Sequence record: NC_101838.1
DNA from: a phage
DNA length: 64,000 bases
Reading direction: 5' to 3' (one strand)
A program made the position numbers and the translations under genes. The notes under the pieces are model-generated. The model ran no database searches and was not told the DNA's origin. It saw nothing but the letters and a program-made list of their open reading frames with translations. The first letter of the stretch is position 1; each line of letters starts with the position of its first letter. Positions 1,670-61,488 of the stretch are shown one piece after another.

Positions 1670-3226
1670 GTGTCCAAAAAGAACCGCAGGAAACACAACG
1701 CCACAGCCAAAACTGTGAATAAATCTGGGAACGCAGGCGCACCAACTCATAATGTTCGTATGAGTGAGATCGGTTCTGGCGCACTTTCCCAAATTATGGC
1801 AGAATCGCAATCTATGATGGTTGAGGAATTGCGTTGGCCTCAGCTGATTGCCACAGTGGAGACTATGAAATGTGATTCCACAGTTGCTACTGCCTTAGAT
1901 ACAAAATATGTTTTCATCACGAAAGCATTCAATGATTTTAAGATCCTTTATAATGTTAAAAGTGAAGACTCTAAGAAAGCTGCCGAGCTTATAGAGTATT
2001 CTTTGCGTAATTTGGCAAACCAACAAACTCTTCGAGATATTGCAAGAAGCGCAGCTACCTTTAACGAGTATGGTTTTTCACTGTTTGAGAAAGTATACCG
2101 CAGAGAGAAAGAAGGTAAATATGCCGGGATGCTTCTTATCGATAAAATTGCATTCCGACCTCAGGCCAGCCTGTCCAGATCAGAGCCGTTTGTTTTTGAT
2201 AAGAATAGTAGAACACTGACAGGTATTTATCAGTCACCTAATGCATTTCTAAACACTCAGAATGCACGCTGGGCTGGACCTCTTGCTGCAATGCCTTCAA
2301 AAGGCTTTAATGAGCCTGAAATTTTCATCCCTGCTAAAAAGCTTATGCTCATGACCCTGTCAGGAACAGAATCTAACCCTGCAGGTGTGTCACCTATGAT
2401 AGGTTGCTACAGATCTTTCCGTGAGAAAGTTCTGATTGAAAACCTTGAGGTTGTTGGCTGTTCCAAAGACCTTGGTGGTGTGCTTGAGCTGAAAATTCCT
2501 TCCAATATTTTGAACAAGGCCAGCATTGACCCGAATTCAATGGAAGGGAGAATGGTTGCAGACCTTATGCTTGACGCAGCAAACGCCCATAGTGGTGAGC
2601 AAAGTTTCTTTATACTTCCGTCTGATAGAGATAAGTCTGGTAAAGAGCTTTACTCCATGACCCTGAAGGGGGTTGACGGTATGGGTAAGCAGTATTCCAC
2701 TAAAGATTTGATTGATGCCCGTAAGAAGGCGATTCTTGACCGTTTCGGTGCTGGCTTTATTAACCTCGGTAACGATAACGTTGGATCCTTCTCTCTGTCT
2801 GAGTCAAAACAGTCTATCCATGGTCATTTTGTTCAGCGTGATATAGATATTATCACTGAAGCCTTCAATAAAGATCTTATTCCACAGCTTCTGGCATTGA
2901 ATGGTATCATCCTTGAAGATGATGATATGCCTAAACTGAAACCTGGTCTGATTGAAGAGGTGGACATGGAGAGCTTCTCCAAGTTTGTCCAGAGGATTGG
3001 TGCTGTAGGTTACTTGCCAAAAACTCCTGCAGTAATTAATAAGATTCTTGAAGTAGGCGGGTTTGATGAAAGATTTGACGAGGACATGGATCAGGAAGAG
3101 CTAATGAAGCTCTTGGGCCAGGACATCAGTAGGGCTGGCGATGGAATGGCTGCAGGATCCACTGGCAACGGCACTTCTAAGATGTCATTAACCAGAGATA
3201 ATTCCATATCCAACATGGAAAATTAA
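1670..3226 (+). CDS. portal protein (putative)
   Basis: 518 aa ORF directly downstream of terminase; GTG start with GAGGGG RBS; assignment by size and position only. Confidence 0.55.
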   Translation: MSKKNRRKHNATAKTVNKSGNAGAPTHNVRMSEIGSGALSQIMAESQSMMVEELRWPQLIATVETMKCDSTVATALDTKYVFITKAFNDFKILYNVKSEDSKKAAELIEYSLRNLANQQTLRDIARSAATFNEYGFSLFEKVYRREKEGKYAGMLLIDKIAFRPQASLSRSEPFVFDKNSRTLTGIYQSPNAFLNTQNARWAGPLAAMPSKGFNEPEIFIPAKKLMLMTLSGTESNPAGVSPMIGCYRSFREKVLIENLEVVGCSKDLGGVLELKIPSNILNKASIDPNSMEGRMVADLMLDAANAHSGEQSFFILPSDRDKSGKELYSMTLKGVDGMGKQYSTKDLIDARKKAILDRFGAGFINLGNDNVGSFSLSESKQSIHGHFVQRDIDIITEAFNKDLIPQLLALNGIILEDDDMPKLKPGLIEEVDMESFSKFVQRIGAVGYLPKTPAVINKILEVGGFDERFDEDMDQEELMKLLGQDISRAGDGMAAGSTGNGTSKMSLTRDNSISNMEN

Positions 3227-3245
3227 AAATTATCAACACAGGGGG

Positions 3246-3274
3246 TTGCAAAACCTCCTTTGGCGTGATAAAAT
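3246..3274 (+). promoter_or_regulatory. sigma70-like promoter (TTGCAA-17-TGaTAAAAT)
   Basis: -35 3246-3251, -10 3269-3274 with TG at 3266-3267. Confidence 0.45.
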
Positions 3275-3293
3275 AATCCACATGGGGAATAAG

Positions 3294-3713
3294 ATGCCAC
3301 AGGAAGAAATGATTTCCTACGAAATCATCTACGAACCTGACACTAAAGATGCTCACGGTGAGTGGATGAGTAAAGACACCATCAAAAAGGCTAAAGATAA
3401 CTGGGACGCAGCATACGCCGCAGGCTTAGTTTCTGAAAACCTTTTTCACTTGACCTCTACAGATGCTTTCACCATTGAAAAGACGTGGATTCAAGAAGAG
3501 TTTGATGTTGTAGTAATTGGTACTGAGCAGGTCATCAAGGCTGGCTCTTGGGTTGCTAAAGTTAAATACAATAATCCTGAATTATGGGAAGCTAAGAAGG
3601 CTGGCATTGTTGGTGGCCTAAGCATTCAGGCAACAGGTAATGTTGATGAAGAGACGGGAGAAATTACCAACGTAAATTTCGGGATCAGTGTTGTAGAAGA
3701 GGGCAATGAATAA
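3294..3713 (+). CDS. hypothetical head-assembly protein (139 aa)
   Basis: Track ORF 3246-3713 begins at a TTG that lies inside a predicted promoter; in-frame ATG at 3294 with GGGGA RBS preferred; function unknown. Confidence 0.4.
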   Translation: MPQEEMISYEIIYEPDTKDAHGEWMSKDTIKKAKDNWDAAYAAGLVSENLFHLTSTDAFTIEKTWIQEEFDVVVIGTEQVIKAGSWVAKVKYNNPELWEAKKAGIVGGLSIQATGNVDEETGEITNVNFGISVVEEGNE

Positions 3714-4693
3714 TGTCTGAAAAAACAATCACTATTAAAGAGAAGGGGATTGCCCTGTGCCATAAGGCGCAAGGTTATAGCGCTAACAACAGACCTGTAT
3801 CTCTTTTAATGAAGAGCGATCTTAAGCCTGAGCAGTTAACAGACGATATTGTTAAGGCACTTCGCCAAGTTACTGTGGAGCTGAGTTTTGAAGAATACCT
3901 GCGTCGTTTCTTCGATATGTGGTATGACGATGCTAAGGCACTGGCTCACCTGCTTGGGTTCGAGATTGAGGAAGAAGCTTGGGCAAAAGAACACCCAGAT
4001 TGGGAGTGGGCACAGGCTGATGCAGAGGCTTGTGTGCAGTGGTTAGAAGAACGTTGTGATAACGTAACCATTCACAAAGCTGCTAAAGAAGGTAAAGATT
4101 TAAGTATTGTTGACCAATACACTCTGCTGAAAACCCAACAAGTTTTTGAGCAGATGACCGCTGATCTCTTCGATGAAGAAGGGAAACTTATTAAAGCGGC
4201 ACAGGAAACCACAGAAGAAGTTGTTACAGACGCTGTGGACAATGTTGATAAATCCGCAAATACCGAGGAGAATCCGGTGGAAGACGTAACCAAGTCTCAA
4301 GAGTACCTGGACCTGCTGAAACAGTTCGAAGAACTGAAAGCTACCAATGAAAAAGCTGAAGAAATCATCAAGGCTCAGGTAGAAGTTGAAAAAGCTAAAA
4401 TGCTGGAAAAAGCTCAGGCGTTAAGCTTCACCACTGAAGAAGACCACGCATCTCTGGTCGAATTCATGCTGGATAAAGCTAACGCCCCTGTTGTTGAATT
4501 GCTGGAAAAAGCTCAAGCTCGTATTGCTGAACTGGAAGCTAAAGTTGAAAAAGCTAAAGAAGAGTTCGCAACCACAGAGCAAGGTAAAGATGGTGATGTC
4601 GTGGTGGACGACATTGCTAAATCTGCTGAAGACATTATTGCTGAAAACGTCGCTAAAGCTCTGGCTCGCGCACGTAAAGAATCCAATAAATAA
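3713..4693 (+). CDS. scaffolding protein (putative)
   Basis: 326 aa; C-terminal half is E/K/A-rich with heptad-like coiled-coil character; located between portal and capsid genes; start overlaps upstream stop (TAATG). Confidence 0.5.
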   Translation: MSEKTITIKEKGIALCHKAQGYSANNRPVSLLMKSDLKPEQLTDDIVKALRQVTVELSFEEYLRRFFDMWYDDAKALAHLLGFEIEEEAWAKEHPDWEWAQADAEACVQWLEERCDNVTIHKAAKEGKDLSIVDQYTLLKTQQVFEQMTADLFDEEGKLIKAAQETTEEVVTDAVDNVDKSANTEENPVEDVTKSQEYLDLLKQFEELKATNEKAEEIIKAQVEVEKAKMLEKAQALSFTTEEDHASLVEFMLDKANAPVVELLEKAQARIAELEAKVEKAKEEFATTEQGKDGDVVVDDIAKSAEDIIAENVAKALARARKESNK

Positions 4694-4714
4694 TTTGTTT
4701 AATAGGGGAAAATA

Positions 4715-5089
4715 ATGATCACCACTCAATATTCTGATATCGTGCTCGGCAAAGTTGATTCTAGCGATGCAGGTTTCAACTTTAAAGAAATTGAAATCAC
4801 TCTCACTGCTGATCACGTTGCTGGCGCAGTAGTTACCAAAACTGGCGCTCTGGCTAATAAAGATGGCACAGACACATTTGGTGTTCTGGTTGACCGTGCA
4901 CTTCTGCCGGACTCTGCTGGCAAAGTTAATCTGGCAGAGCCTCTGACTGTGGGTCAGAAATACAAATTAGTCGTTGCTGTTCGTGGCGTTACTTTCGCTA
5001 AAAAACACCTGAAAGTAGCCAGCGGCGAAGCTGCACCTGCTGCAGTTCTGGAAGCCCTCGAAGCCAAAGGCAACAAAGTTCAGGAATAA
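4715..5089 (+). CDS. head decoration or auxiliary capsid protein (putative)
   Basis: 124 aa, immediately upstream of major capsid gene; strongly optimised codon usage typical of abundant virion proteins. Confidence 0.35.
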   Translation: MITTQYSDIVLGKVDSSDAGFNFKEIEITLTADHVAGAVVTKTGALANKDGTDTFGVLVDRALLPDSAGKVNLAEPLTVGQKYKLVVAVRGVTFAKKHLKVASGEAAPAAVLEALEAKGNKVQE

Positions 5090-5135
5090 TCCTAGATCTT
5101 TGGGAAACAAATTTTAAAGTTATTTGGAGAAAATA

Positions 5136-6137
5136 ATGCGTAAAGATGATTTTGGTATTGTTGATTTAGGTGCTACTCTTGAACTGGTTCCACGCCAATA
5201 TCGCCTGATCACTGGTATGGATCTGTTTGAAACCCATCTCGGCACCTCAACAATCGCACAGATCGAACGTGTTGATGAAGTGGTTGGTGATATCGCCGCT
5301 CGCCGTCGTGGTGGTGAACGTAACTACGTTGATAGCGAACGTGCACAGATCAAAAACCTGAACATCCCGTTCTTCCCACTGGATAAGGGCATCACTGCTG
5401 CGGACGTTCAGAACTTCCGTCGCTACTTCACCCCAGATGCACCGAAAACTGTGCAAGACGTGGTTACTCGTGTAGTTCGTCGTATTCGTCTGAGCCACGA
5501 AACCCTGCGTGAAAAAGCTCTTTTTTCTGCAATTCTGGGTAAATCCTATGCGCCTGGCGACACCACCTGTCAGTATGACTATTACAAACTGTGGGGCGTT
5601 TCCCAGAAATCTATCGAAATCGATCCTAAAAATGCAGCACAGGACCCGATGGAAGTAATCGAAGATGCACGTCTGCACATTGCTCTGCAGGCTGGTGACA
5701 ACGCTGGTGCTTACAACATCATCGCGCTGTGCTCTCCGAAATTCTTCTCAGCACTGGTCCATCACCCGCTGGTAGAGCTGGCTTACACCTACTACAGCTC
5801 TTCTCAGGAACCGCTGCGTCGTCGTCTGGGTGCAGGTGGTGAGCAGAGCATTTACCGTGTGTTTGAACACAAGGGTATGACCTTCATCGAAGACATCTCT
5901 GGCAACATTCCGGACGGTGAGGCTCGTCTGATGCCTATGGGTATCGATCAGATGTTCCAGCTGCACTTTGCTCCGGCTGACACTCTGGAAGATGCAAACA
6001 CCCCAGCTCAAGAGCTGTATATGTGGTATAAACACTCTGCCTACCTGAGAGAACAGAAAATCGAATCTGAAACCTCTATGCTGGCAGTTAACACCCGTCC
6101 AGAGCTGGTTGTTAAAGTAACTCTGAAAAGTGAATAA
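5136..6137 (+). CDS. major capsid protein (lambda gpE-like fold suspected)
   Basis: 333 aa; GGAGA RBS 5 nt upstream of ATG 5136 (track start 5124 is a TTG); highly optimised codons (CTG, CGT, GGT, CCG); followed by strong intrinsic terminator; position after scaffold/decoration genes. Confidence 0.6.
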   Translation: MRKDDFGIVDLGATLELVPRQYRLITGMDLFETHLGTSTIAQIERVDEVVGDIAARRRGGERNYVDSERAQIKNLNIPFFPLDKGITAADVQNFRRYFTPDAPKTVQDVVTRVVRRIRLSHETLREKALFSAILGKSYAPGDTTCQYDYYKLWGVSQKSIEIDPKNAAQDPMEVIEDARLHIALQAGDNAGAYNIIALCSPKFFSALVHHPLVELAYTYYSSSQEPLRRRLGAGGEQSIYRVFEHKGMTFIEDISGNIPDGEARLMPMGIDQMFQLHFAPADTLEDANTPAQELYMWYKHSAYLREQKIESETSMLAVNTRPELVVKVTLKSE

Positions 6138-50790: not shown

Positions 50791-51056
50791 TACTCTTCCT
50801 CCATAGTTTCACCAAATACTTCGATACGAGCATCGAGCTCGGTTGCTTTCAGCTCCCCAACAAAATCTTTTAGTTCTTTCTCGTCCAGATCGTAAGCCCA
50901 CACACAAGAAGAACATGCAGATTTCACAATCAGCAGCGTAGATACACGACCTGACTCTGTGATCATGCTCACAATGGTTCCCACAGGGAACGTGTTGATA
51001 GCTTTTTTAACTGGGCGTTCAGCTTTAATTACTACCTCTGTTGCCATAAATAACAT
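50790..51056 (-). CDS. small paralog family member 1
   Basis: 88 aa; tandem with the two downstream genes. Confidence 0.35.
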   Translation of the reverse strand: MLFMATEVVIKAERPVKKAINTFPVGTIVSMITESGRVSTLLIVKSACSSCVWAYDLDEKELKDFVGELKATELDARIEVFGETMEEE

Positions 51057-51062
51057 CCTCTC

Positions 51063-52544
51063 TTACTTAGCGTACTCGATTAATTCCACAGTTTTCCCAA
51101 AGCTCGGGATATAATTTTTATTATACCCTTCGGTGAGAACCCATAAAGTATCGTACTTTTTCCACTTGTTGTCAACAGCCTTTTGTTCAAAGTTATGCTC
51201 AAAGTAGAGGTCGGTAAGGACGATGACATCTTTTGCATTCGGTATGTTAGCATCCAGATACTCGAACACGCAGGCGGCTGTTGTGCCCCATGTTGAGTGG
51301 ACCTCATAGTTAATCATCTCATCGATGTTACCGCGAGTGTATACTTTAACCTCTCCAACCTCCGTTGACCAACAGAACATAGTAACCTTAAACTCTTTAT
51401 ACAAATTGCACAACCCGGTGATCTCATTGAACATTTTCTTTAAAGTTCTTTGTGAGATCGACCCAGAAACGTCTAAAGCCACTACAATATCTATAGTGTT
51501 TTCCGGATTACGACCAGGAACAATAACGTGTTGATTCTTGTTTATAGCTCCAACTTTTCGCATTGTGGTGGTCAAAGACCCAGATCGGCGACCAGGTTTT
51601 CTGTAGGTTAACTCAGCCTTTCTTTTAGATAACATACGTTGCTTAATAATATCTATATAATTGATTACAGGCTTGCCTCTGTTTTTGACAAACTCGCGCA
51701 CCGCCTCGGGACAACGACCTCCTGAAGCTTGCATTGCTGCTTCCAACATGTCACCAGAGTCCTGCATGGCCTGATCTTTGTCAGATTGACTGATTACTGG
51801 TTGCGGCTGATCATACCCCATAGCCTTTCCAAGATCATCACTAGTGCCACCGTTCCCGCTCATGTGATCATCGGTTTGTCGTTTATCTCCTTGGGAGTTC
51901 TCACCTTTACCGTTCTTACTTTTACCGCCATTCTGATCTCTTTGTTTATCAAGAACTGCATAGACGTTCTCAGCAATCCATCCATGAAACCTCATGTCGC
52001 AGTAGCAATTAGCTAAGAAGCCAAAAGGCTTACCTTTTACGAACTCAGTGCTTTTCCCCTTCGGGAAGAAAACACAAGGAGGCTTGCTAAAGTCAACCAC
52101 AAGACCTGTGTTGATAACGTGATCACAAGCAATATTGAACAGTTCCGGCTCAAAGCTTTTACCACGGACCAGATGATCACAGATAATATGCCCCACCTCA
52201 TGTGACAGAAGAAAGGCCACCTCTTTCACAGATTTTGGGGAATAGAAAACCTCAGCCATCTCAAACTGCTTGTCAGTCAGAGATGCTTTAAGAATGGTTT
52301 TACGCTCATCCGCCAACCCCATAATGAACTCAGGGCTGTAGTAGATGCGTTTATGGTCGGTTGCCATGGTGGAGCACCATGTGTGGTTTTCTACGAACTG
52401 CAACCCTGACAGTAGTGTGCCATAAAACGGCAGCTTTTCAAGGAGATACATACGTGCAGCCTGCAACATTCTCAGGGCATCATCTTTCTGCGAGGCAATG
52501 ATTTCTGAACTTCTGCTATCCATTAAAACTCCAGAAGGGGCCAT
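51063..52544 (-). CDS. HExxH metallopeptidase-like domain plus von Willebrand factor A domain protein
   Basis: 493 aa; N-terminal LLSHEVGHIICDH zinc-binding motif; C-terminal vWA MIDAS motif IVVALDVSGSIS. Confidence 0.6.
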   Translation of the reverse strand: MAPSGVLMDSRSSEIIASQKDDALRMLQAARMYLLEKLPFYGTLLSGLQFVENHTWCSTMATDHKRIYYSPEFIMGLADERKTILKASLTDKQFEMAEVFYSPKSVKEVAFLLSHEVGHIICDHLVRGKSFEPELFNIACDHVINTGLVVDFSKPPCVFFPKGKSTEFVKGKPFGFLANCYCDMRFHGWIAENVYAVLDKQRDQNGGKSKNGKGENSQGDKRQTDDHMSGNGGTSDDLGKAMGYDQPQPVISQSDKDQAMQDSGDMLEAAMQASGGRCPEAVREFVKNRGKPVINYIDIIKQRMLSKRKAELTYRKPGRRSGSLTTTMRKVGAINKNQHVIVPGRNPENTIDIVVALDVSGSISQRTLKKMFNEITGLCNLYKEFKVTMFCWSTEVGEVKVYTRGNIDEMINYEVHSTWGTTAACVFEYLDANIPNAKDVIVLTDLYFEHNFEQKAVDNKWKKYDTLWVLTEGYNKNYIPSFGKTVELIEYAK

Positions 52545-52556
52545 TGGCCCCTGTCA

Positions 52557-53597
52557 TTATTTAACGTGTTTGAAAATACCTGCCAACTCGGTCATTGTCA
52601 TGCGGGTGGTCTTCATAAGATCTGTCATAGCTTTCTCCATAATTGGAGATACTACCATAAAGTTTCCTTTAGTGAAACCTTTATTCCAGTCGGTCACCAA
52701 CAGGGGTTTAAGTCCAGCTCCAAGACGTTCACCAGTTAAAGCACAGCATTTGCGAATATACGAACTCTTAAATTGGCTGAATGACAGATCAACTTTCATA
52801 CCTACATCGTAGAACGTTTGACAATAGAAAGTGTAAGCTTTGGCAATCTCAACATCATCAGGTAGTGCAGGAACCTCTTCTGTAAGCTCCTCTTCGACCT
52901 CCTGAGTCTCTTTTTCCTCTTCATGCACCTGTTGCGTCATTTCTTCAATCTCTTCTGTGATAGGCTCGTTTACAATGTCGGAAATGTGCTTCTTGGGTGC
53001 ACGATAAGTAACTTTAGACATCGGTAGCATATCTTCCTCCTCTTCTTCGTCAAAGAGTGCTAGTTTATCCTCTTCCGTTCCATATTGCAAGATGAAATCT
53101 TCAAAAGTATAATCACCTTTCAATTTCTCCATACGCTCTTCGCTCAGGTGGAGCATCATCTGCTGGACAATTTTTCGATCAGTTTCGTCTTTAATCAAGA
53201 CTGCAGTCTTTTTATCTACCAGACAGTCCTTTAGAGAGTTGCATCTCAATCCCACCACACAACAGTTATCAACCGCATAAGGACCTTCATCATCTATCCG
53301 CTCCAGGGATGGGTAGAAAGGATTCCCCAGCCCGTTTTCATCTGTGTGCATGTCAAAAGGTATAAGGGTATAGTCGCATACTCCATCTCCTAAAAGTTTT
53401 TTACCAAATAGGAGGTATTCTTCCCATGACAGGTCGAACTCTATATCTCGTTTCCGTGCGTTATTCTGTTTGCGTCTATATTTTTTGAGCAAGCGCTCTA
53501 ACTCTTCTGGTGTATAATATTTTTCAAGATTCATGAGTCGTCTCTCGTGCTCTGTAAGTGAAGAAATCGTATCAATTGTCTCAACAGATGTCAACAT
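52557..53597 (-). CDS. Endonuclease VII/HNH-like zinc-binding domain protein with acidic linker and C-terminal domain
   Basis: N-terminal region GDGVCDYTLIPFD...ERIDDEGPYAVDNCCVVGLRCN resembles EndoVII-type fold (recalled); acidic linker DEEEEED; internal Met preceded by SD-like GGAGGAAG lies in a 27-bp inverted repeat; ATG 53597 preferred over track TTG 53600. Confidence 0.4.
   Translation of the reverse strand: MLTSVETIDTISSLTEHERRLMNLEKYYTPEELERLLKKYRRKQNNARKRDIEFDLSWEEYLLFGKKLLGDGVCDYTLIPFDMHTDENGLGNPFYPSLERIDDEGPYAVDNCCVVGLRCNSLKDCLVDKKTAVLIKDETDRKIVQQMMLHLSEERMEKLKGDYTFEDFILQYGTEEDKLALFDEEEEEDMLPMSKVTYRAPKKHISDIVNEPITEEIEEMTQQVHEEEKETQEVEEELTEEVPALPDDVEIAKAYTFYCQTFYDVGMKVDLSFSQFKSSYIRKCCALTGERLGAGLKPLLVTDWNKGFTKGNFMVVSPIMEKAMTDLMKTTRMTMTELAGIFKHVK
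52998..53024. repeat. 27-bp inverted repeat, left copy
   Basis: Exact reverse complement of 54862-54888 (CCGATGTCTAAAGTTACTTATCGTGCA); overlaps an in-frame Met of the minus-strand ORF. Confidence 0.85.
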
Positions 53598-53607
53598 CAA
53601 AAACGTG

Positions 53608-53636
53608 TTGACTTTACTCTAACTCCACAATATAGT
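53608..53636 (+). promoter_or_regulatory. sigma70-like promoter (TTGACT-17-TATAGT) for plus-strand early block
   Basis: -35 53608-53613, -10 53631-53636, in the divergent intergenic region. Confidence 0.5.
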
Positions 53637-53676
53637 GCACCCATTCGAAAGAAAACTAACATAGGAGCACTTACTT

Positions 53677-54576
53677 ATGGCAAATCTTAACAGTTTTAGT
53701 ACGCGGTGGAAACAGGACATAACAACCAATCTTTCAGCTGGGGACATCCTTTCTGCAATTTACGAGGCTTTAGATGATAAAGCTACTTCAAAAGCGGTTT
53801 GTACCAACCCATTAATTCCTATAGTGATGAAGGTTATTGAGCGTAGATTGGTATCTGGGTCTGATAAGTGGACATATTTAGATAATGAAGGACACACCTA
53901 TTCCAATGGGTATGTCGATATAAAAGTAGAATACGCGGTATCATACCGCCGGAGCGGTTCTGTAACTTTCAACTTCTCTGGAGGTTTTCGATCTCTGGCC
54001 ACCTCACCTTTTGTTTCCTCAGAGGAGAAGTATGAGCTGCCATTTCTTTGGATGATGGCTAACGCGACAGGAAAAACCCCCGTTAGCATCCGAGTAAAAT
54101 ACAACTACAACGGATCTAGTAAGATCTATGCCGAAAGTGTCTCAGCAAGTTTTTATTTTGTGATGGGGGATGGAATCCTCAAACATATAAAGATGTGCGA
54201 TATGCATGATGTTATAAATGAAGTGACTGATAAGAATGTTCTAGTGAAAGACCTCAACAATTTTTATACACCCGGAGACTATTACGTCAGCCGTCCACTG
54301 TGCATCTTTAATGCCGCACACCCTCTAGGTGAGTATTTGATCGCCAATAGCGATATTGCCAATAACCGCTTCGAGGTAGCAAGAGTTCAGAATGAGGTAT
54401 TGACATCTTGCAAGAGCGGTGATAAGTTTACCGAAGAAGAGATGGGTGTTTTAGAAATGATGGGATATAAGTGTAGCCTTTGGGTAGATGAGGTGTTCAA
54501 TGATTGCATCTATGGACAGGATATTTACCCATTAAAGAAGTATACTGATTCCAGTTTAATTTACGCGGAGATTTGA
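53677..54576 (+). CDS. hypothetical early protein
   Basis: 299 aa; AGGAG RBS; downstream of promoter 53608-53636. Confidence 0.45.
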   Translation: MANLNSFSTRWKQDITTNLSAGDILSAIYEALDDKATSKAVCTNPLIPIVMKVIERRLVSGSDKWTYLDNEGHTYSNGYVDIKVEYAVSYRRSGSVTFNFSGGFRSLATSPFVSSEEKYELPFLWMMANATGKTPVSIRVKYNYNGSSKIYAESVSASFYFVMGDGILKHIKMCDMHDVINEVTDKNVLVKDLNNFYTPGDYYVSRPLCIFNAAHPLGEYLIANSDIANNRFEVARVQNEVLTSCKSGDKFTEEEMGVLEMMGYKCSLWVDEVFNDCIYGQDIYPLKKYTDSSLIYAEI

Positions 54577-54578
54577 CT

Positions 54579-54851
54579 ATGATGAAGTCATGTGGTAGTG
54601 TATATTATGTTGGTGAGAATGTTCAGGCAGATAGTGTGTGGAAATCCATTAAGTCCACCACCGATGATGCCTTTCTGAGCGGGTTATGTTTTCCCAGCCC
54701 AGGGGACACTCTCCCTTACCCTGGAGATTTTGTTGTCAACAAGATGGACGGTTATACCGTGTGCCTGATGGTTGAAAAAATCTTTTTAGACACTAGACAC
54801 AATCACCGTCTTGTGTTAAAATTTCAAGAATGTAAAATGACAATTGCCTAA
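54579..54851 (+). CDS. hypothetical protein
   Basis: About 90 aa from ATG 54579 (track TTG 54573); GGAG RBS. Confidence 0.35.
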   Translation: MMKSCGSVYYVGENVQADSVWKSIKSTTDDAFLSGLCFPSPGDTLPYPGDFVVNKMDGYTVCLMVEKIFLDTRHNHRLVLKFQECKMTIA

Positions 54852-54861
54852 GGAGACCTTG

Positions 54862-54888
54862 CCGATGTCTAAAGTTACTTATCGTGCA
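54862..54888. repeat. 27-bp inverted repeat, right copy
   Basis: CCGATGTCTAAAGTTACTTATCGTGCA; contains ATG 54865 start of acidic protein gene. Confidence 0.85.
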
Positions 54889-55221
54889 GCTATTTACTGC
54901 AATGAACACCCAATCAATAATGATGGTCACTGCCTTTTTAAAGAAAATCAATTGGGCTGTATTGTCCTCCCTGATGAAGGGGAAGGTTATCTGATTGCGT
55001 TGACAGGGTTTGAACCTGAAGCTCTGGAAGCCAATCTTGACTACCTGGTAGAGGAGGGTGCTGCAGACCTGGTTGCCAATGGCCTCTCCATAAGCCTTGA
55101 CGAAGTGGAGCGCTTCATGGGCAATTACCGTGTAGTGCGTGAGTTTACTATCGAGGTGGAAACTCCAGAGTGGGGTAGCCATGAAACTAATGCCGAAGAA
55201 AAAGAAGAGGAGGTAGAATAA
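54865..55221 (+). CDS. acidic hypothetical protein
   Basis: 118 aa from ATG 54865 (track TTG 54844); AGGAGA RBS; first 8 codons lie in the 27-bp inverted repeat; C-terminus highly acidic (EEKEEEVE). Confidence 0.45.
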   Translation: MSKVTYRAAIYCNEHPINNDGHCLFKENQLGCIVLPDEGEGYLIALTGFEPEALEANLDYLVEEGAADLVANGLSISLDEVERFMGNYRVVREFTIEVETPEWGSHETNAEEKEEEVE

Positions 55222-55478
55222 TGAAAGTGCAGATCTTGACTAATGCCGAGAAGATGTTTATTGAAGATACACCTTTTGAAGCTGGTGAGCTACAGTTCAT
55301 TTATTTTGTTGACTTAGATAAGGTGTTCCCTGCACTGAATCTTGGTCTGGATGAAGTTCCTCATAAGGTTTTGTGCCAAGTTGTTCGTGCATTAGCGGCA
55401 GATGGGGAGTTCCACACCCTTGAAGATGTCCAGACCTACGGGTATCTTGAACTACAACGAGAAGAAGAGGTGGACTGA
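55221..55478 (+). CDS. acidic hypothetical protein
   Basis: 85 aa; start overlaps upstream stop. Confidence 0.35.
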   Translation: MKVQILTNAEKMFIEDTPFEAGELQFIYFVDLDKVFPALNLGLDEVPHKVLCQVVRALAADGEFHTLEDVQTYGYLELQREEEVD

Positions 55479-55480
55479 TA

Positions 55481-55861
55481 ATGGCCCAGTGGAAGACAAC
55501 AGTTGACCTTCATGATCAGTGGTTAGGACGCATCACTGAAGACGGGAAGCTAGTGGAGTGGGACAATAAGCATGTTAGCGAGTTGGCAAGTATTGTAGCT
55601 GGCAAGTTACGCTCCAAGTTCCCTGAACAACTGGATCCTGATAGTTCAAAGTTCGATCCTGAGTTAGAGGATGTTGTATACTACTTCGACACCGTTGATG
55701 ACTACGACGCGTGGTTTGCAGCACGGGAGCTTTACCCACAAGGCTCTGCTATGCGCCAGATGGAAGAAGATTATCCTCCGTGCGAGCAATTTAATAGCGC
55801 AATGACTTGCCTCTACGATTGGGCAGATAAGAACCTTGTCTGGATTCGGACTGCATTCTAG
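55481..55861 (+). CDS. hypothetical protein
   Basis: 126 aa; TAG stop. Confidence 0.35.
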   Translation: MAQWKTTVDLHDQWLGRITEDGKLVEWDNKHVSELASIVAGKLRSKFPEQLDPDSSKFDPELEDVVYYFDTVDDYDAWFAARELYPQGSAMRQMEEDYPPCEQFNSAMTCLYDWADKNLVWIRTAF

Positions 55862-55875
55862 CAGGTGGGGCAAGG

Positions 55876-56169
55876 ATGCCACTTAAAAGAGTAATAAACA
55901 TGTTATACCAGAAACACGAACTTTGTGCAGAAAAAGAGTTAAATTTTGACAAAGTTATCCACAGATATTGTTATGGAAAAACCGGAAGACAATTAAGAAG
56001 ATGCACTCCAGCATTCTTTCACCCCAGCAGGCGACTAAGCCCTGAAGAAGCAACAGCAGAAAGGGTTGCATACAACTGGGAAGTTGTGTACGATATTGAC
56101 AGATCCGATGTGACATCTGTTTTGGAAAACTTTGAAAACACTTACACACAAGTAGAGGACTTTTACTAA
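55876..56169 (+). CDS. hypothetical protein
   Basis: 97 aa; stop overlaps start of AAA+ gene. Confidence 0.35.
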   Translation: MPLKRVINMLYQKHELCAEKELNFDKVIHRYCYGKTGRQLRRCTPAFFHPSRRLSPEEATAERVAYNWEVVYDIDRSDVTSVLENFENTYTQVEDFY

Positions 56170-57353
56170 TGTCAAGAAACGTATTTGAAAGTGGTCAAAT
56201 CACTGTCCGTGAGTTGCCAGCCATCATTCAGTTTGCCCAGCGTCATAACCGATCTGTCCTGATTTTAGGACCAATGGGCGTGGGGAAGAGCCAGGTGATG
56301 AAGCAGATCGCTGATAATATGTTCGGTGAGCGAGATGACAACCTGGTTGACGTGCGGCTGTCAGATAAAGATCCTGCCGACTTATCTGGGCTACCTATCC
56401 CTGTAGAAGCGGATGGAACTACACGTACAGTGTTTGCAATTCCAGAATTTTGGCCTGCAGATCCGGACTGGAGCGGAATTATCTTTCTGGATGAGCTCAC
56501 TCATGCAGATAACTATCTGCAAAAGGTTGCAATGCAGATTATGCTCGACCACAAGTGCGGCACCTATGCATTCCCTAAAGGCTCTGTTTTTGTGGCTGCG
56601 GGTAACCGTTCTACAGATGGTGCGGTTCTTTCGGCGCTCGAAGCCCCTCTGGCTAACCGTTTTATCATTGTAGAAGTTACAAGCAATGCAGAGGTGTTTA
56701 TTGAGGACTACGCATTCCTCAATGGGGTGCACTCCTCTGTAATTGGGTATCTGAAAAGAGTTCCATCAGCTATCGATAATTATGAGGCTATGGCTGAGAT
56801 TAATTGTCCATCTTTTGCCACACCGCGATCTTGGGTTGCTGCATCTGACATCTTGCACGATTTTGACAGCGGTATTATTTCTGACGCTATGGCCCGTGTT
56901 CTTCTGCAAGGTGCTATTGGTCACACTGCAGCGGTAGAGATCTGGACCTACCACACCAAGAAACGCAACTTACCGGAAATCGGTCGGATTATGGCAGGGG
57001 GTTGCAAAGAATACATAGGTCCTAAACAGCCAGACATCTTGTGGATTCTTGGGTCTGAAGGTTGTATCGCTATTCGTAATATGATGGAAAATGCAAGTAT
57101 CTCCGACGAAGATCTTGTTAGCTGTGTAGCAAACTTCCTCGATTTCCTTTGGGAAAATTTCAAGGACGAGAACCGAGATTTTGTATTCTCAGTCTTTATG
57201 GCGATGATGAAACCTAATGCCTTAGGAAATGCCTTGCTTATCGGTAAAGGGCGTGACAAGATCGTTGCTCAACTGATCAAAGCGTACCCAAACCTGATGA
57301 AGATTGTAAAAGAGTTTGGTGAAGAGTTTAGCGCCATTTTAGCTAAAGCTTAA
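56169..57353 (+). CDS. MoxR/CobS-type AAA+ ATPase
   Basis: 394 aa; Walker A LILGPMGVGKSQ, Walker B IIFLDELTHA. Confidence 0.7.
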   Translation: MSRNVFESGQITVRELPAIIQFAQRHNRSVLILGPMGVGKSQVMKQIADNMFGERDDNLVDVRLSDKDPADLSGLPIPVEADGTTRTVFAIPEFWPADPDWSGIIFLDELTHADNYLQKVAMQIMLDHKCGTYAFPKGSVFVAAGNRSTDGAVLSALEAPLANRFIIVEVTSNAEVFIEDYAFLNGVHSSVIGYLKRVPSAIDNYEAMAEINCPSFATPRSWVAASDILHDFDSGIISDAMARVLLQGAIGHTAAVEIWTYHTKKRNLPEIGRIMAGGCKEYIGPKQPDILWILGSEGCIAIRNMMENASISDEDLVSCVANFLDFLWENFKDENRDFVFSVFMAMMKPNALGNALLIGKGRDKIVAQLIKAYPNLMKIVKEFGEEFSAILAKA

Positions 57354-57362
57354 GGGGGTTGT

Positions 57363-57743
57363 ATGGCTAAAGTAGGTAAGCGGGGAAATTACCGGGTGGT
57401 ATTGACCGAGGAGCCGGAGAAGGAGTACGAATGCAGCTCCACTTGCGTGATCGATATCCGAGAAAAAGATGTAGATGAAATCTGGTTTAAAATATTAGAC
57501 GCTTGCGACAGCAGTGATTATTTCTTCATCTATGTCAACGATAAGGCTGGATTCTTCCATGACGACGGAGAGTTGCCGTATGAAATCTATGAACTTGTAG
57601 AGGCTTGCCATCGTGGAGATGCGGAGTTGTTTGGCCTACGGCTGAAAAGCGGTAAATTCTTCTATCAAGATGAGTGCATGAATCTTCATAACTTTGTAGA
57701 GGGAACTTGCAACGATGGAGAGATTTTGGCACACTACGATTAA
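57363..57743 (+). CDS. hypothetical protein
   Basis: 126 aa; AGGGGG RBS; followed by terminator. Confidence 0.35.
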   Translation: MAKVGKRGNYRVVLTEEPEKEYECSSTCVIDIREKDVDEIWFKILDACDSSDYFFIYVNDKAGFFHDDGELPYEIYELVEACHRGDAELFGLRLKSGKFFYQDECMNLHNFVEGTCNDGEILAHYD

Positions 57744-57754
57744 TTTCTAAGACC

Positions 57755-57783
57755 TCCCCCGCTTCGGCGGGGATTTTCTATTT
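57755..57783 (+). terminator. intrinsic terminator
   Basis: TCCCCCGC / GCGGGGA stem, TTCG loop, TTTTCTATTT tail. Confidence 0.6.
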
Positions 57784-57792
57784 GGAGTCATT

Positions 57793-58293
57793 GTGAAAAT
57801 TAAGATCTTTGCTATTATTTTGAGCGCACTTTTATCGCTGCCTGTTGTTGCAGCACCAAAACAAAAAGTATATCATACTTGCAAGCCATCAGATACTAAG
57901 GAAAACATTCTGGCATGCAATATCTACAGGGAAGCTAGAGGAGATGGCACGATGGGTATGCTGGCATCTGGGTTTGCCACACTAAACAGGAAATCCCACC
58001 CTAAATACCCAGACACTATAAGAAAGATTGTCTACCAACCTAACCAGTTTTCGTGGACAAACCACGGCAAAACTTTTAAGGTGACAGAAAAAGATTCATG
58101 GGATCACGCTAAAAGTCTTGCAAAGATGCTTCTAAAGGTCTATAATAACAACCATGTTGCATACATGGCTATGGATATAACAGGTGGAGCAACACACTAC
58201 CATACAACCAAAGTACGACCGAAGTGGGCAAAAAAGATGCAGAGGACAGCTCAATTCGGGAGTCATATCTACTACAAGGAGCGCAATAAATGA
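57793..58293 (+). CDS. endolysin candidate, SleB-like cell wall hydrolase with Sec-type signal peptide
   Basis: 166 aa; N-terminal MKIKIFAIILSALLSLPVVAAPK signal-like sequence; motifs NIYREARGDG and QPNQFSW typical of SleB/Hydrolase_2 family. Confidence 0.55.
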   Translation: MKIKIFAIILSALLSLPVVAAPKQKVYHTCKPSDTKENILACNIYREARGDGTMGMLASGFATLNRKSHPKYPDTIRKIVYQPNQFSWTNHGKTFKVTEKDSWDHAKSLAKMLLKVYNNNHVAYMAMDITGGATHYHTTKVRPKWAKKMQRTAQFGSHIYYKERNK

Positions 58294-60272
58294 TTGTAAA
58301 CAGTAATGAAACTAAAGCGGTACTGACCGGGAATATGGAGGTCACCAGGGGCTCAATTTCTCTGAACAAAGAGACTTTTGGGCTAATCATTAAAGGGATT
58401 TACGAAGACAAGGTGCTGGCAAGCTGCCGTGAACCAATCTTCAATGCCGTGGACTCTCATGTTGAGTCTGGACGGGGTGATGTACCGATCATCATTCACT
58501 CTCCTACAGACCTTGAACCATACTTCTTTGTGCAGGACGTTGGATTGGGCATGTCAGAAGAGATGGTCCGCAACACTTTCATGAACCTCGGGGAGTCAAC
58601 CAAGCGCAACAGCAACGCTCTGGTAGGTAATAAAGGTGTTGGTTCAAAGGCTCCGTTCAGCATGGTGGACACTTTCGATGTTATCAGTGTGCACAATGGT
58701 GTTGAAAGCACATATCTATTGTTCTTGGATCAGGGTATCCCAAACGTTACCAAGATCCGTGAGCGGAAGACTGAAGAGCACAACGGGGTAAAAGTTCAGT
58801 TCCATGTTAAGAAAGAGCATGTCCTGAAATATCGCACTGCTATTGCATCGTGCTTACGCTATGCGAAGTTTCCGTTCATCGTCACCGATCCTATGACCAG
58901 TAAGATGTTAGAAGGTGACAAGGTTGAGGCACAGTATCATTACGAGAAGGATGGCTGGAAAATGACCATCCTGAAAGGTTATACCAGTTCTGATGAGAGC
59001 CGTGTTGTGATGGGTCACCAACCTTACCGCTCCAAGTTCCTGGAGACATTGACCGATTACCCTGCAATCTGCGTGGAAATTCCTATTGGGGATTGCAATA
59101 TTAACCCTGGGCGTGAATGGACCATAGAGGGCCATGACGACGGTGGATTCCAGGATCGCCTGGAGGCCTTTGTCAAAGAAGGTATACGTCTTCGCGGGGC
59201 AGAAGTTGTTGCAGAACTGGAGACGGCAAAAACCTCCGCAGAAGCACGTGAAATGATGAAGAATAGTGGAGTGTTCGGACACATCTTCGGCAAAAACTTT
59301 ATGTGGAACCGTTGGGAAGAAACAGGGCTTGGCGACTTAGGCGATTGTGAAATTTTCGCTGGCGGCTTAAATAAAGGCCGCATAGGCTATGCTCGTTACG
59401 GAAAGTCGGAGTTCTTACGAGGTGTATACCTTGTATTTAACGACGGAGACGGCAAATATAACCGGAATAAGTGTAACTACTTAAGCGAGATCACCGGACG
59501 CAACGTTTTCTATTGCCGGAACACGGATCTGGTGAAAGAGTTTAAAGAGGCGGCACACCATCCGTTCTTTGCAGATACGGTCAAATTGTTATCGGAGCTT
59601 CCACGCCGACCTGCGAAGAAAGGTGAAACCAAAACTCGTTACGAGCCAGGCTACTGGGTTAAGAAGCTTAGAGAGGATGGCTACTTCCATCGTGAGCGCC
59701 TCACGAAGGCAGAGTTCAAGAAGATTAAGCATTGCATCCCTTATGAGGGGGATATCCAACGGGGAAGCTGCTGGCTGGGCCAGATGAGTAACATCTACCA
59801 GCAAAATTATGACCGTGTGCGTGCTGCACTCCAGATTCCTGAAGGTGAAGATCTGTACCTGGTATCAGAATCTCGTCTGCTTTGGACTGATCCTGATTGC
59901 CAGTATGTTACAGAGAAGAATGTGGAACATTTGTTGAAAGAGGATGCTTGGAAATTCTTACTGACTCGCGCAGCAAATGAAACTTCATATGACAGCCTGT
60001 ATAGACAATTAGGGAAAATTATCCCCATGCAGGATTTTGGAAATTATCGGCCACATTTCCACAAGTGGGAAGGTAACACCGCGTGGAAGCACAGTGAGCT
60101 AAATCATCGTGCCAAAATCTTAATCGCCAACCGGGTTAAGTGCGGGAAGGCCTATATTGCAAGATTGGAAAAGAAATATCCACTTTTGAAGCATGTGGGC
60201 TTGAAATATTGGGACACTCCTGCTATGATTGAATACCGTGAACTGATTGATACAAAGAATAACATCAAATAA
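58290..60272 (+). CDS. rIIA: rIIA-like protein (N-terminal GHKL ATPase fold)
   Basis: 660 aa; GHKL motifs EPIFNAVDSH, VQDVGLGM, GNKGVGSKAPFSMVDTFDVISVH, similar to recalled T4 rIIA N-terminus; followed by rIIB-like gene. Confidence 0.7.
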   Translation: MIVNSNETKAVLTGNMEVTRGSISLNKETFGLIIKGIYEDKVLASCREPIFNAVDSHVESGRGDVPIIIHSPTDLEPYFFVQDVGLGMSEEMVRNTFMNLGESTKRNSNALVGNKGVGSKAPFSMVDTFDVISVHNGVESTYLLFLDQGIPNVTKIRERKTEEHNGVKVQFHVKKEHVLKYRTAIASCLRYAKFPFIVTDPMTSKMLEGDKVEAQYHYEKDGWKMTILKGYTSSDESRVVMGHQPYRSKFLETLTDYPAICVEIPIGDCNINPGREWTIEGHDDGGFQDRLEAFVKEGIRLRGAEVVAELETAKTSAEAREMMKNSGVFGHIFGKNFMWNRWEETGLGDLGDCEIFAGGLNKGRIGYARYGKSEFLRGVYLVFNDGDGKYNRNKCNYLSEITGRNVFYCRNTDLVKEFKEAAHHPFFADTVKLLSELPRRPAKKGETKTRYEPGYWVKKLREDGYFHRERLTKAEFKKIKHCIPYEGDIQRGSCWLGQMSNIYQQNYDRVRAALQIPEGEDLYLVSESRLLWTDPDCQYVTEKNVEHLLKEDAWKFLLTRAANETSYDSLYRQLGKIIPMQDFGNYRPHFHKWEGNTAWKHSELNHRAKILIANRVKCGKAYIARLEKKYPLLKHVGLKYWDTPAMIEYRELIDTKNNIK

Positions 60273-60282
60273 GGAGACCAAG

Positions 60283-61488
60283 ATGATTTTCATTTACGAA
60301 CACTTCAAAACTCGTAAAGAAGCACGTGACCGCCGTGCAGAACTTGAGAAGAAGGGTTTCACATGTGCCATTGAGAAAGGTGACACAACCTGGACACTGG
60401 CAGTGGGTGCCCCAGAGTTGTTCGATCCTGACCGTGACAGCGTCTGCTACACCCGTGAGGATTTTGAAACCCGTGAAGAGGCCCGTTTATTTCGATATGG
60501 GCTGGAAGATAACGGTAAGTACGCCATGATCTTAGACTTGGGCGAAGGTTCCGTTAAACGTTGGGGCGTGGTATACCCACTGTGTGTTGTTCACGGTGTG
60601 GGGTTCACTGGGGTGGCAATCAAGTCAGAAGAACCTTTAGTAGAAGTCAAAGATCCGGTGCTGGAGGTGGTGAGCAGTGTGTCTCAGCAACAGACTCGAA
60701 GCATCGAGCCTTTAGTAGTTATTTGTGGAGAACTCCTCCAGATCACCTGCAACGAAGGTATTTTTGAAATTCGCCGCAGTGAAAGTGAGGAAGTTTACCA
60801 GAAAGTCTTCGACCATATCTCTGTTCAGGAATATGACGAGGCAATTGGTGAAATCCTTGTCTGGGTGGAACGCAAGAATGAGTTCACCACACTTGCAGAC
60901 AACCTGATCATGAAGGATGGTAAGCTCTACTACTACGGTGTAGAGATGCGATCCACCATTGCAAAGAAAATTGAGAAAGATTATGCAGACGGAACACTGG
61001 ATGACCGCTATGTGAAATTCCTAGTTCGCCTGCTACGCAATCCTTCTGCAAAATCTGTAAACATGCTCTACGATTTTATGCAGGCCAACGATATCCAGAT
61101 TGCAGAAGATGGTCGAATCATTTGCTACAAAGGGGTTCAGTTTAACGGCAGCAAGTGGGTGGATTGGCACAGTGGTAAAGTTCCACAATACCAGGGTGCT
61201 TTTGTATCCATGCCTCGTAACTTTGTAGAGGATGATCCGGAAGCTGCGTGCTCCTATGGCTTACACTGCGCCAGCAAAGAGTATGCAAAGAGCTACGGCA
61301 CTGTAATGACTGTTATGGTTGATCCTGCAGATGTGGTTAGTGTGCCATACCAACACAATAGCGCTAAGTGCCGTGCATGCCGCTATGAGATTGTGGTAGC
61401 TCCGGAAGCACGCAAAGATGGAGACCCTATTGAATATGTAGTTGATCGTGACGGCAACACTATCGACATTCTTTACGAGGAGGCGTAA
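60283..61488 (+). CDS. rIIB: rIIB-like protein
   Basis: ATG 60283 with AGGAGA RBS (track start 60247); C-terminal region LRNPSAKSVNMLYDFMQANDIQIAEDG ... CSYGLHCASKEYAKSYG ... DVVSVPYQHNSAKCRACRYEIV resembles recalled T4 rIIB. Confidence 0.65.
   Translation: MIFIYEHFKTRKEARDRRAELEKKGFTCAIEKGDTTWTLAVGAPELFDPDRDSVCYTREDFETREEARLFRYGLEDNGKYAMILDLGEGSVKRWGVVYPLCVVHGVGFTGVAIKSEEPLVEVKDPVLEVVSSVSQQQTRSIEPLVVICGELLQITCNEGIFEIRRSESEEVYQKVFDHISVQEYDEAIGEILVWVERKNEFTTLADNLIMKDGKLYYYGVEMRSTIAKKIEKDYADGTLDDRYVKFLVRLLRNPSAKSVNMLYDFMQANDIQIAEDGRIICYKGVQFNGSKWVDWHSGKVPQYQGAFVSMPRNFVEDDPEAACSYGLHCASKEYAKSYGTVMTVMVDPADVVSVPYQHNSAKCRACRYEIVVAPEARKDGDPIEYVVDRDGNTIDILYEEA

Follow-up and report, generated by a model that had tools for sequence, protein, structure and literature searches.

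A predicted MoxR-class ATPase gene and its putative metallopeptidase-vWA partner gene in an rV5-like coliphage: a split version of a widespread two-gene module

We analysed a 64,000-nucleotide stretch of phage DNA (sequence record NC_101838.1; "the window" means this whole stretch) for 2 genes that encode a predicted MoxR-class AAA+ ATPase and a partner protein with a putative metallopeptidase domain and a vWA domain. The partner gene, a homologue of N4 gp25, occupies positions 51063-52544 on the minus strand as an open reading frame (ORF) of 493 aa, and the ATPase gene, a homologue of N4 gp24, occupies positions 56169-57353 on the plus strand as an ORF of 394 aa; residue numbers refer to these 2 window proteins. 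The start codons lie on opposite strands, 3,624 nt apart, and the interval holds an Srd/EndoVII-like ORF, a strand-switch region, 6 plus-strand ORFs, and a perfect 27-nt inverted repeat. A previous sequence-only reading of this DNA had reported the 2 ORFs at these positions and on opposite strands, separated by a 3.6-kb gap with an EndoVII-like ORF and an inverted repeat, and all of this was confirmed in the ORF list. The 4 motifs it had quoted are likewise present: GPMGVGKSQ (aa 34-42) and FLDELTHA (aa 106-113) in the ATPase, and SHEVGHIICDH (aa 114-124) and DVSGSIS (aa 358-364) in the partner.

The host genome of the pair is an rV5-like coliphage of the genus Vequintavirus. A DNA search showed a 6.4-kb segment of the window to be 95-97% identical to 121 phage records, including PMBT16, MaxBurger/Bas54, FFH2, EdH4, and Murica. 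In Vequintavirus records the ATPase gene is already labelled 'MoxR ATPase' or 'ATPase', and the partner gene 'putative metallopeptidase', 'VWA-like domain containing protein', or 'HNH endonuclease'. Sixteen GenBank records named 'Campylobacter phage' (MG0656xx, host C. jejuni) are also ~95.8% identical to positions 51000-57400, a host label that looks doubtful.

The partner has a clear 2-domain composition. It matches DUF2201_N (PF13203, putative metallopeptidase) at aa 95-321 with E = 2.3e-28 and 100 bits (cut-off 23.2), and DUF2201 (PF09967, vWA-like) at aa 353-488 with E = 3.6e-11 and 43.7 bits (cut-off 26.4); against phrog_1314 the E-value was 8.9e-123, and all these matches far exceed what chance would give. 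In an alignment of 47 homologues reaching down to ~20% identity, the invariant residues of the N-terminal domain were H115, E116, and H119 (the HExxH motif), H124, and D141, while those of the C-terminal domain, D358, S360, S362, T421, and D445, make up a complete metal ion-dependent adhesion site (MIDAS). The AlphaFold2 model (mean pLDDT, the model's own confidence score, 83.5) displays a helical N-terminal domain with a 3-stranded sheet preceding the HExxH helix. A disordered linker rich in Gly, Asp, and Lys (aa 212-234) comes next and leads through a helical region to the compact C-terminal vWA domain, beyond which there is nothing. A sequence search of the Protein Data Bank (PDB) returned no match for the partner, and its profile detected only integrin-type vWA domains together with motif-level matches to M48 (E = 0.0075) and minigluzincins. 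These features suggest that the N-terminal domain is a putative zincin-like peptidase. The family is very large: at 50% identity and E <= 1e-30 it forms 14,906 clusters, and in most of them the match spans the full length. A basic TYxRPxRR motif (here TYRKPGRR) is found family-wide at aa 314-322 (~51579-51605), just ahead of the first vWA strand; its R320 is nearly invariant, and the motif might be a docking or cleavage site.

The label 'HNH endonuclease' attached to phrog_1314 has been carried into RefSeq for N4 gp25, FFH2, Murica, and Aeromonas 2L372X. The phrog_1314 proteins that we checked (51063-52544 in the window; 3165-4307 in locus L007, which is N4 gp25; and 4173-5642 in locus L092) contain DUF2201_N and DUF2201 and no HNH domain. 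Judged by these domain assignments the label is wrong, a propagated misannotation that should be corrected in RefSeq.

Compared to the partner, the ATPase was harder to place. Direct scans (Pfam, NCBIfam, PADLOC) gave sub-threshold P-loop matches only, and phmmer against PDB sequences recovered only ClpB and ClpC at the level of the Walker A motif. Since these direct searches stayed below threshold, we based the MoxR assignment on homologous proteins, on a profile search, and on the fold prediction. The protein matches phrog_1297 with E = 1.7e-110, and its profile detected the AAA modules of midasin in the PDB (E = 4.4e-11). Its homologues number thousands, and from ~1e-45 downward they carry AAA_3, AAA_5, and sometimes bpMoxR (PF20030); one of them, P0047 (E = 9e-45 to the ATPase), passes both AAA_3 (31.7 versus 27) and AAA_5 (26.9 versus 22). 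An alignment of 44 homologues, down to 30% identity, revealed invariant residues at every expected catalytic position, namely Walker A (G37, G39, K40, and S41), Walker B (D108 and E109), sensor 1 (N146), the arginine finger (R164), and sensor 2 (R220). In the AlphaFold2 model (pLDDT 84.6), strands 2 and 3 are separated by a helix-2-insert beta-hairpin (aa 76-89), and a small hairpin (aa 129-134) precedes sensor 1, as in AAA+ clade 7; among solved structures, the MoxR proteins CbbQ and NorQ are closest in fold. On this evidence from homologues and model we accept the protein, by a moderate margin, as a MoxR-class AAA+ ATPase.

To describe the linkage of the 2 genes outside the window, we surveyed 88 loci, 86 of them phage-derived, consisting of 80 IMG/VR contigs and individually added loci. 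The partner gene was detected in 74 of them, and in 69 of these 74 it lies at most 600 nt downstream of the ATPase gene on the same strand. In one of the remaining 5 the partner, again on the same strand, is 1.4 kb downstream, and in the other 4, all Vequintavirinae, it is on the opposite strand. Every one of the 14 loci with no detected partner ends within ~1.1 kb of the ATPase gene, and the ATPase was linked to a gene for a vWA protein in all loci having enough downstream sequence (74/74). The 2 genes are adjacent in phages as different as N4, the jumbo phage Munch (350 kb), and Aeromonas phage 2L372X, and also in the chromosome of Sulfurivermis fontis. A second set of 80 bacterial loci, essentially one clade of sulfur-oxidising Gammaproteobacteria, encodes ATPases whose median E against the phage-derived profile is 3e-73; 61 of these loci were scored as adjacent, and ~10 more are ORF-overlap artefacts of the stop-to-stop ORF definition. 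Counting these, the ATPase gene immediately precedes the partner gene in the same orientation in ~70 bacterial loci. In the 45 full-length bacterial loci, the ATPase-partner linkage is the only one present in all. After the ATPase-DUF2201 pair, locus L089 (6297-7409) and 24 of the 45 related bacterial loci have an ORF of ~370 aa that lacks Pfam domains and may encode a third partner specific to the lineage, or a client.

A tblastn search of INPHARED found the ATPase in 785 records and the partner in 529, and the hosts of the carrier phages include Escherichia, Pseudomonas, Vibrio, Roseobacter, and Bacillus. Identity to the window ATPase falls from ~50% in PVP-SE1 to ~42% in L006, ~35% in L005, and ~27% in N4, and identity to the partner falls in the same order (~45%, ~37%, ~34%, and ~21%). 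The 2 proteins have diverged at matching rates. The proposal in the sequence-only reading that the 2 proteins are halves of a MoxR-vWA pair was supported, since outside the Vequintavirinae their homologues are almost always adjacent and co-directional. Together, these sequence comparisons support the conclusion that the window genes are a split version of a widespread phage and bacterial 2-gene module.

The gene order in related loci suggested how the split may have arisen. In L005 and L006, the nearest relatives outside the Vequintavirinae (35-42% identity), the order is helicase (minus), SleB-like hydrolase (minus), divergent point, ATPase (plus), and partner (plus). In the window, it is partner (minus), Srd-like (minus), divergent point, small ORFs (plus), ATPase (plus), SleB-like (plus), rIIA, rIIB, and helicase (plus). 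From these 2 orders we infer that a single inversion in the ancestor of the Vequintavirinae turned the adjacent layout into the split one. The inverted segment would have reached from the divergent promoter region to a breakpoint in the spacer between ATPase and partner, and the inversion would have moved the ATPase gene and the divergent promoter region to the other arm. The opposite-strand layout is common to Vequintavirus, Seunavirus PVP-SE1, L009, and L010, and we consider it old and stable because Vequintavirus, PVP-SE1, and the L010 lineage all have it.

The perfect 27-nt inverted repeat, with copies at 52998-53024 (minus) and 54862-54888 (plus), was considered as a cause of the split and rejected, because the minus-strand arm varies among records of the genus while the split extends to Seunavirus. 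No such repeat is expected by chance. Read along either coding strand, the sequence is CCG ATG TCT AAA GTT ACT TAT CGT GCA (PMSKVTYRA). ORF 54865-55221 has one copy at its start, and the Srd-like ORF carries the other within its acidic linker; since both copies lie in coding strands, the 2 mRNAs share a 27-nt stretch that includes an AUG. The plus-strand arm is conserved, whereas the minus-strand arm occurs in ~27 of ~121 Vequintavirus records and is absent from MaxBurger. Gene conversion may have left the repeat as a patch, or it may serve as an internal start of translation or as a shared translational-operator site.

Between the 2 genes, a consensus scan and the sequence itself predicted a bidirectional sigma-70-like promoter region at 53566-53636, acting on both strands. 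The minus-strand promoter, TTGACA-17-TACGAT (53594 to 53566), is predicted to drive the unit of the Srd-like and partner genes, and the plus-strand promoter, TTGACT-17-TATAGT (53608-53636), the ATPase unit; the 2 are arranged about the palindrome GTCAAC...GTTGAC. In rV5, bidirectional promoters have been reported between genes 10 and 11 (PMC3606486), and the predicted promoters at 53566-53636 correspond to these; the PVP-SE1 annotation also has a promoter at the equivalent place. The ATPase and the partner are predicted to be co-expressed from one bidirectional early promoter region. The Srd/EndoVII-like ORF itself (52557-53600, minus) matches phrog_3118, with weaker matches to the Srd and EndoVII families.

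A GC-rich hairpin, AGGGGCC-AAT-GGCCCCT, is found on the minus strand at 52536-52552, between the stop codon of the Srd-like ORF and the start of the partner, and may be an attenuator or an RNA-stability element. The ATG at 52544, with which the 493-aa ORF begins, is located in the loop of a GC hairpin. The true start of the partner gene is probably the ATG at 52523, which gives 486 aa, because GGAG is located 5 nt upstream of it and because this length agrees with the deposited annotation and with the cluster representative P0121. Downstream of the ATPase gene, a terminator-like hairpin, CCCCGCTTCGGCGGGG with a T-rich tail (57757-57772, plus; consensus match only), would end a plus-strand unit made of the ATPase gene and a 126-aa ORF (57363-57743).

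Other ORFs of the interval showed features of their own. Relatives label ORF 53677-54576 (plus, 299 aa) a 'putative alpha 1-3 fucosyltransferase', which has no Pfam or NCBIfam support; the ORF matches only phrog_12338, a PHROG of unknown function. Similar acidic tails (..EEEVE, ..EEEVD, and ..VEDFY, at 55202-55223, 55462-55483, and 56150-56171) close 3 small plus-strand genes in a row, and each gene passes through a TAATG stop/start junction into the next (direct repeat family D1). This arrangement suggests that these small genes are paralogous and translationally coupled, leading into the ATPase gene.

We consider it probable that the window genes are Vequintavirus orthologues of N4 gp24/gp25, that is, an ancient 2-gene module that was split by inversion and encodes a predicted MoxR/vWA remodelling machine with a tethered peptidase. 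The domain identities, the conservation of catalytic residues, the gene linkage, and the rearranged gene order were shown here; complex formation, proteolysis, the client, and the role in infection are proposals. By analogy with NorQ/NorD, CbbQ/CbbO, and midasin, a hexameric ring of the ATPase would grip the vWA domain of the partner, and the MIDAS site would ligate an acidic residue of a client protein. ATP-driven pulling, twisting, or stretching could then pass through the linker and remodel the client. In a step specific to this family, the tethered N-terminal zinc-peptidase domain would cleave the remodelled client, or the partner itself, in which case the pair would be a 2-polypeptide analogue of an AAA+ protease. 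Judging by expression timing and neighbouring genes, the client would be pre-late and non-structural.

Several observations point to a pre-late housekeeping role in infection, which we favour over virion assembly and over accessory anti-defence: the early or middle placement of the genes, their status as N4-like core genes, their near-invariance in Vequintavirus, and their presence in bacterial chromosomes. In N4, gp24 and gp25 are middle genes and 2 of the 14 N4-like core genes (PMC4193335). Across lineages, the pair is always found in early or middle regions with dCTP deaminase, ThyA/ThyX, 5'-3' exonuclease, helicase, and rIIA/rIIB as neighbours. The rIIA/rIIB genes lie a few kb downstream of the gp24-type ATPase on the same strand both in the window (56169-61488) and in N4 (L007, 1939-12001), and in several other lineages the pair is near thymidylate synthase, dCTP deaminase, or 5'-3' exonuclease. 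These shared neighbours could be a functional hint, or could reflect mere placement in early and middle gene clusters.

A bolder form of this explanation is that the gp24/gp25-type pair represents an unrecognised class of bipartite ATP-dependent metalloprotease, in which a MoxR ring would use a vWA/MIDAS adaptor to seize a particular client with an acidic residue and would deliver or expose it to the tethered zincin, serving an essential pre-late step in N4-like, rV5-like, and many jumbo phages, while the bacterial operons would act likewise on a cellular client. We put this forward tentatively and regard it as open to considerable doubt. If it were true, the split in the Vequintavirinae would be a natural experiment, indicating that the 2 halves need co-expression but not translational coupling.

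A number of points weigh against the remodelling-machine explanation. The ATPase reached no Pfam AAA gathering score: the AAA_5 (PF07728) score was 16.7 bits against a cut-off of 22, and no AAA_3 (PF07726) match appeared in the Pfam scan. Profile searches of the kind advised in the sequence-only reading were clear for the partner, with both DUF2201_N and DUF2201 above gathering, and fell short for the ATPase, while a CobS/CobT match was found for neither. The peptidase nature of the N-terminal domain rests on the Pfam name, the invariant HExxH...H...D, the motif-level likeness to M48 and minigluzincins, and a zincin-compatible order of secondary structures; the PDB search returned no solved structure matching this domain. 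An equivalent of the vWA 'finger' of NorD was not identified in the partner. Co-expression from the bidirectional promoter region is itself a prediction. The mirror-tree correlation between ATPase and partner is high (r = 0.97, Mantel p = 0.001), yet we give this co-divergence little weight because any 2 co-inherited genes would correlate. Our literature search found no experimental study of any family member, and no interaction, ATPase, or protease data, in agreement with the statement of the sequence-only reading that the role of such phage pairs is not established. A deletion of EdH4 gp004 (PMC9712115) was considered as possible knock-out evidence and set aside: gene 004 encodes a hypothetical protein and is unlikely to be the ATPase gene, because the latter maps at ~34-35 kb in the EdH4 record.

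The sequence-only reading had raised the idea of a takeover or anti-defence module. In such a module the pair would capture and then cleave or unfold a host protein early in infection, such as a defence sensor, an effector, or a housekeeping protein. Early or middle expression beside the Srd-like anti-sigma gene and the rIIA/rIIB counter-Rex genes agrees with this idea, as does the use of MoxR-vWA couples as switches in conflict systems (PMC7159879), and a conserved cellular client, targeted by phages too, would be in keeping with the occurrence of the module in bacteria. However, counter-defence genes are usually patchy and fast-evolving, whereas this pair belongs to the N4-like core, is kept in 117 and 118 Vequintavirus records (at least 95% identity) compared to the 121 found by DNA, and includes an ATPase that is at least 99% identical in 104 Vequintavirus records. 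The pair also has no PADLOC family match and no third effector or sensor component, and a host range from Escherichia to Bacillus would demand a universally conserved target. Given the N4-like core status and the bacterial chromosomal operon, housekeeping remodelling fits better than an accessory counter-defence function, and we regard takeover or anti-defence as rather unlikely. Core status would fit a morphogenetic necessity, with the pair acting as a virion-assembly chaperone that builds a head or tail structure and whose peptidase processes structural proteins. This has been proposed for jumbo phages by analogy with a MoxR-vWA system needed for tail development in Acidianus two-tailed virus (PMC7824862), and in Munch a head completion gene is located ~5 kb upstream of the pair. 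The N4 genes, however, are middle genes that lie beside dCTP deaminase, a thymidylate-synthase-like gene, and rIIA/rIIB, not beside the late structural genes, and the window genes are under predicted sigma-70-type early promoters near the Srd-like gene, rIIA/rIIB, and a helicase. Moreover, the virion-protein table for N4-like roseophages lists as N4 homologues only the late gp52, gp54, gp56, and gp59, not gp24/gp25 (PMC4193335), and bacterial chromosomes carry this operon outside any phage context. We therefore judge a virion-assembly role unlikely.

A role as a metal-cofactor insertion chaperone, comparable to NorQ/NorD, CoxD/CoxE, BchI/BchD, or CobS/CobT and with the HExxH motif holding a metal instead of forming a protease, appears to us improbable. 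The nearest solved homologues (NorQ/NorD, CbbQ/CbbO, and BchD) do act in metal insertion or active-site remodelling, and in phages the pair is recurrently near enzymes of nucleotide metabolism. Neither protein carries a CobS/CobT or chelatase signature, though, and no single metalloenzyme neighbour is kept across lineages: thymidylate synthase is near the pair in 22 of 37 long loci, mostly in one clade, and a linkage to ferrochelatase, suggested by Sulfurivermis, was rejected on finding it in only 5 of the 45 bacterial loci. The invariant E116 is in addition the catalytic base of zincins, and metal storage alone would not need a glutamate. The split itself raises the question of whether the Vequintavirinae proteins came to work independently after the inversion, or whether one of them decayed, as 3.6 kb separates their genes, which are on opposite strands and belong to different transcription units. 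This we find very improbable indeed: both genes are intact, full length, and keep every catalytic and MIDAS residue; the split persists from Vequintavirus to Seunavirus (~50% and ~45% identity) with neither gene lost; both diverge at the rate seen in adjacent-gene lineages; and one predicted bidirectional promoter region serves both. A pre-late MoxR/vWA remodelling machine with a tethered peptidase remains the explanation that we favour.

The rV5-like gene labels were already known, and the architecture has been known in jumbo phages since 2021; only the split layout is unusual in the window pair, which is otherwise ordinary as a discovery. New here is that the window pair, N4 gp24/gp25, the jumbo-phage pair, and the chromosomal operon of sulfur-oxidising Gammaproteobacteria are brought together as one module, which, among phage gene pairs lacking an assigned function, is one of the most widespread (~500-800 INPHARED records and ~15,000 clusters at 50% identity). 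Tractable coliphages carry it, including N4, the BASEL Vequintaviruses, and EdH4, and both Cas13a-based editing and CRISPRi-ART knock-down have already found use in N4 and EdH4 (PMC9712115 and PMC11879866). With such carriers and tools, defined point mutants could assign the role of the module, and the split layout lets each half be manipulated with no polar effects on the other.

Comparison with known systems showed various degrees of likeness. The sequence-only reading had referred to CobS/CobT-like phage genes and to nucleotide-dependent conflict systems, and neither comparison held. For CobS_N/CobT/CobT_C and the Mg-chelatase families there was no match to either protein in Pfam or NCBIfam (E <= 0.01); the CobS/CobT and BchI/BchD chelatases do not contain an HExxH domain, and their third subunit has no counterpart beside the window pair. 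The correct reference is N4 gp24/gp25 together with the jumbo-phage pair. The MoxR-vWA-centred ternary conflict systems (Kaur, Burroughs, Iyer, and Aravind 2020, eLife 9:e52696; PMC7159879) share the MoxR and vWA core and occasionally have metallopeptidase effectors fused to the vWA protein, and the bpMoxR domain (PF20030) on some ATPase homologues is a further likeness. In contrast to these systems, the window-type module consists of 2 genes, occurs in lytic phages and unicellular sulfur oxidisers, and has its peptidase at the N-terminus, whereas the conflict-system effector position is C-terminal. A VMAP, iSTAND, FtsH, or beta-propeller third component was not found among the neighbouring ORFs tested, and PADLOC gave no match for the partner and only noise-level matches for the ATPase.

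FtsH and other AAA+ proteases offer a functional analogy only, in that they combine an AAA+ ring with an HExxH zinc peptidase, as predicted here. In the window pair, motor and peptidase would be separate polypeptides bridged by a vWA domain, and the motor is of the helix-2-insert/MoxR type, in contrast to the classical AAA+ clade of FtsH. NorQ/NorD and CbbQ/CbbO, of the MoxR CGN subfamily, show no similarity to the window proteins by phmmer or hmmsearch against PDB sequences, but the partner model arranges its domains alike, with a linker between the N-terminal domain and a C-terminal, MIDAS-bearing vWA domain; NorD is laid out as N-domain, linker, and vWA, and NorQD interacts in a finger-in-pore manner (PMC13036017). 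The N-terminal domain of the window partner is HExxH zincin-like, unlike the N-domain of NorD/CbbO, and the window ATPase has an extra C-terminal helical region of ~120 aa compared to NorQ/CbbQ.

Closer counterparts are found among phages. In jumbo phages, a MoxR-(metallopeptidase-vWA) pair was described by Iyer, Anantharaman, Krishnan, Burroughs, and Aravind (2021, Viruses 13:63; PMC7824862), with the same architecture and the same predicted chaperone/co-chaperone logic as the window pair, and tblastn ties the window proteins to the ~350-kb jumbo phages Munch, BF17, Serratia BF, and fHe-Yen9-03. That study covers group 2.2 jumbo phages only and proposes virion assembly; the rV5-like phages, the N4 link, and the split layout are outside its scope. 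N4 gp24/gp25 (Schitoviridae) are homologous to the window pair by BLASTP, with 3e-28 over 355 aa for the ATPase and 2e-20 over 419 aa for the partner at 21-27% identity, and the tblastn matches in INPHARED include phage genes annotated 'N4 gp24-like' and 'N4 gp25-like'. The Vequintavirus partner is ~110 aa longer than N4 gp25, mainly through inserts in its N-terminal domain and linker, and the 2 N4 genes are neighbours, run in the same direction, and have 167 nt between them, whereas those of the window are 3.6 kb apart on opposite strands. The N4 and window pairs nevertheless resemble each other in domain content, in having rIIA/rIIB downstream of the ATPase gene, and in being expressed, by prediction in the window, ahead of the late genes.

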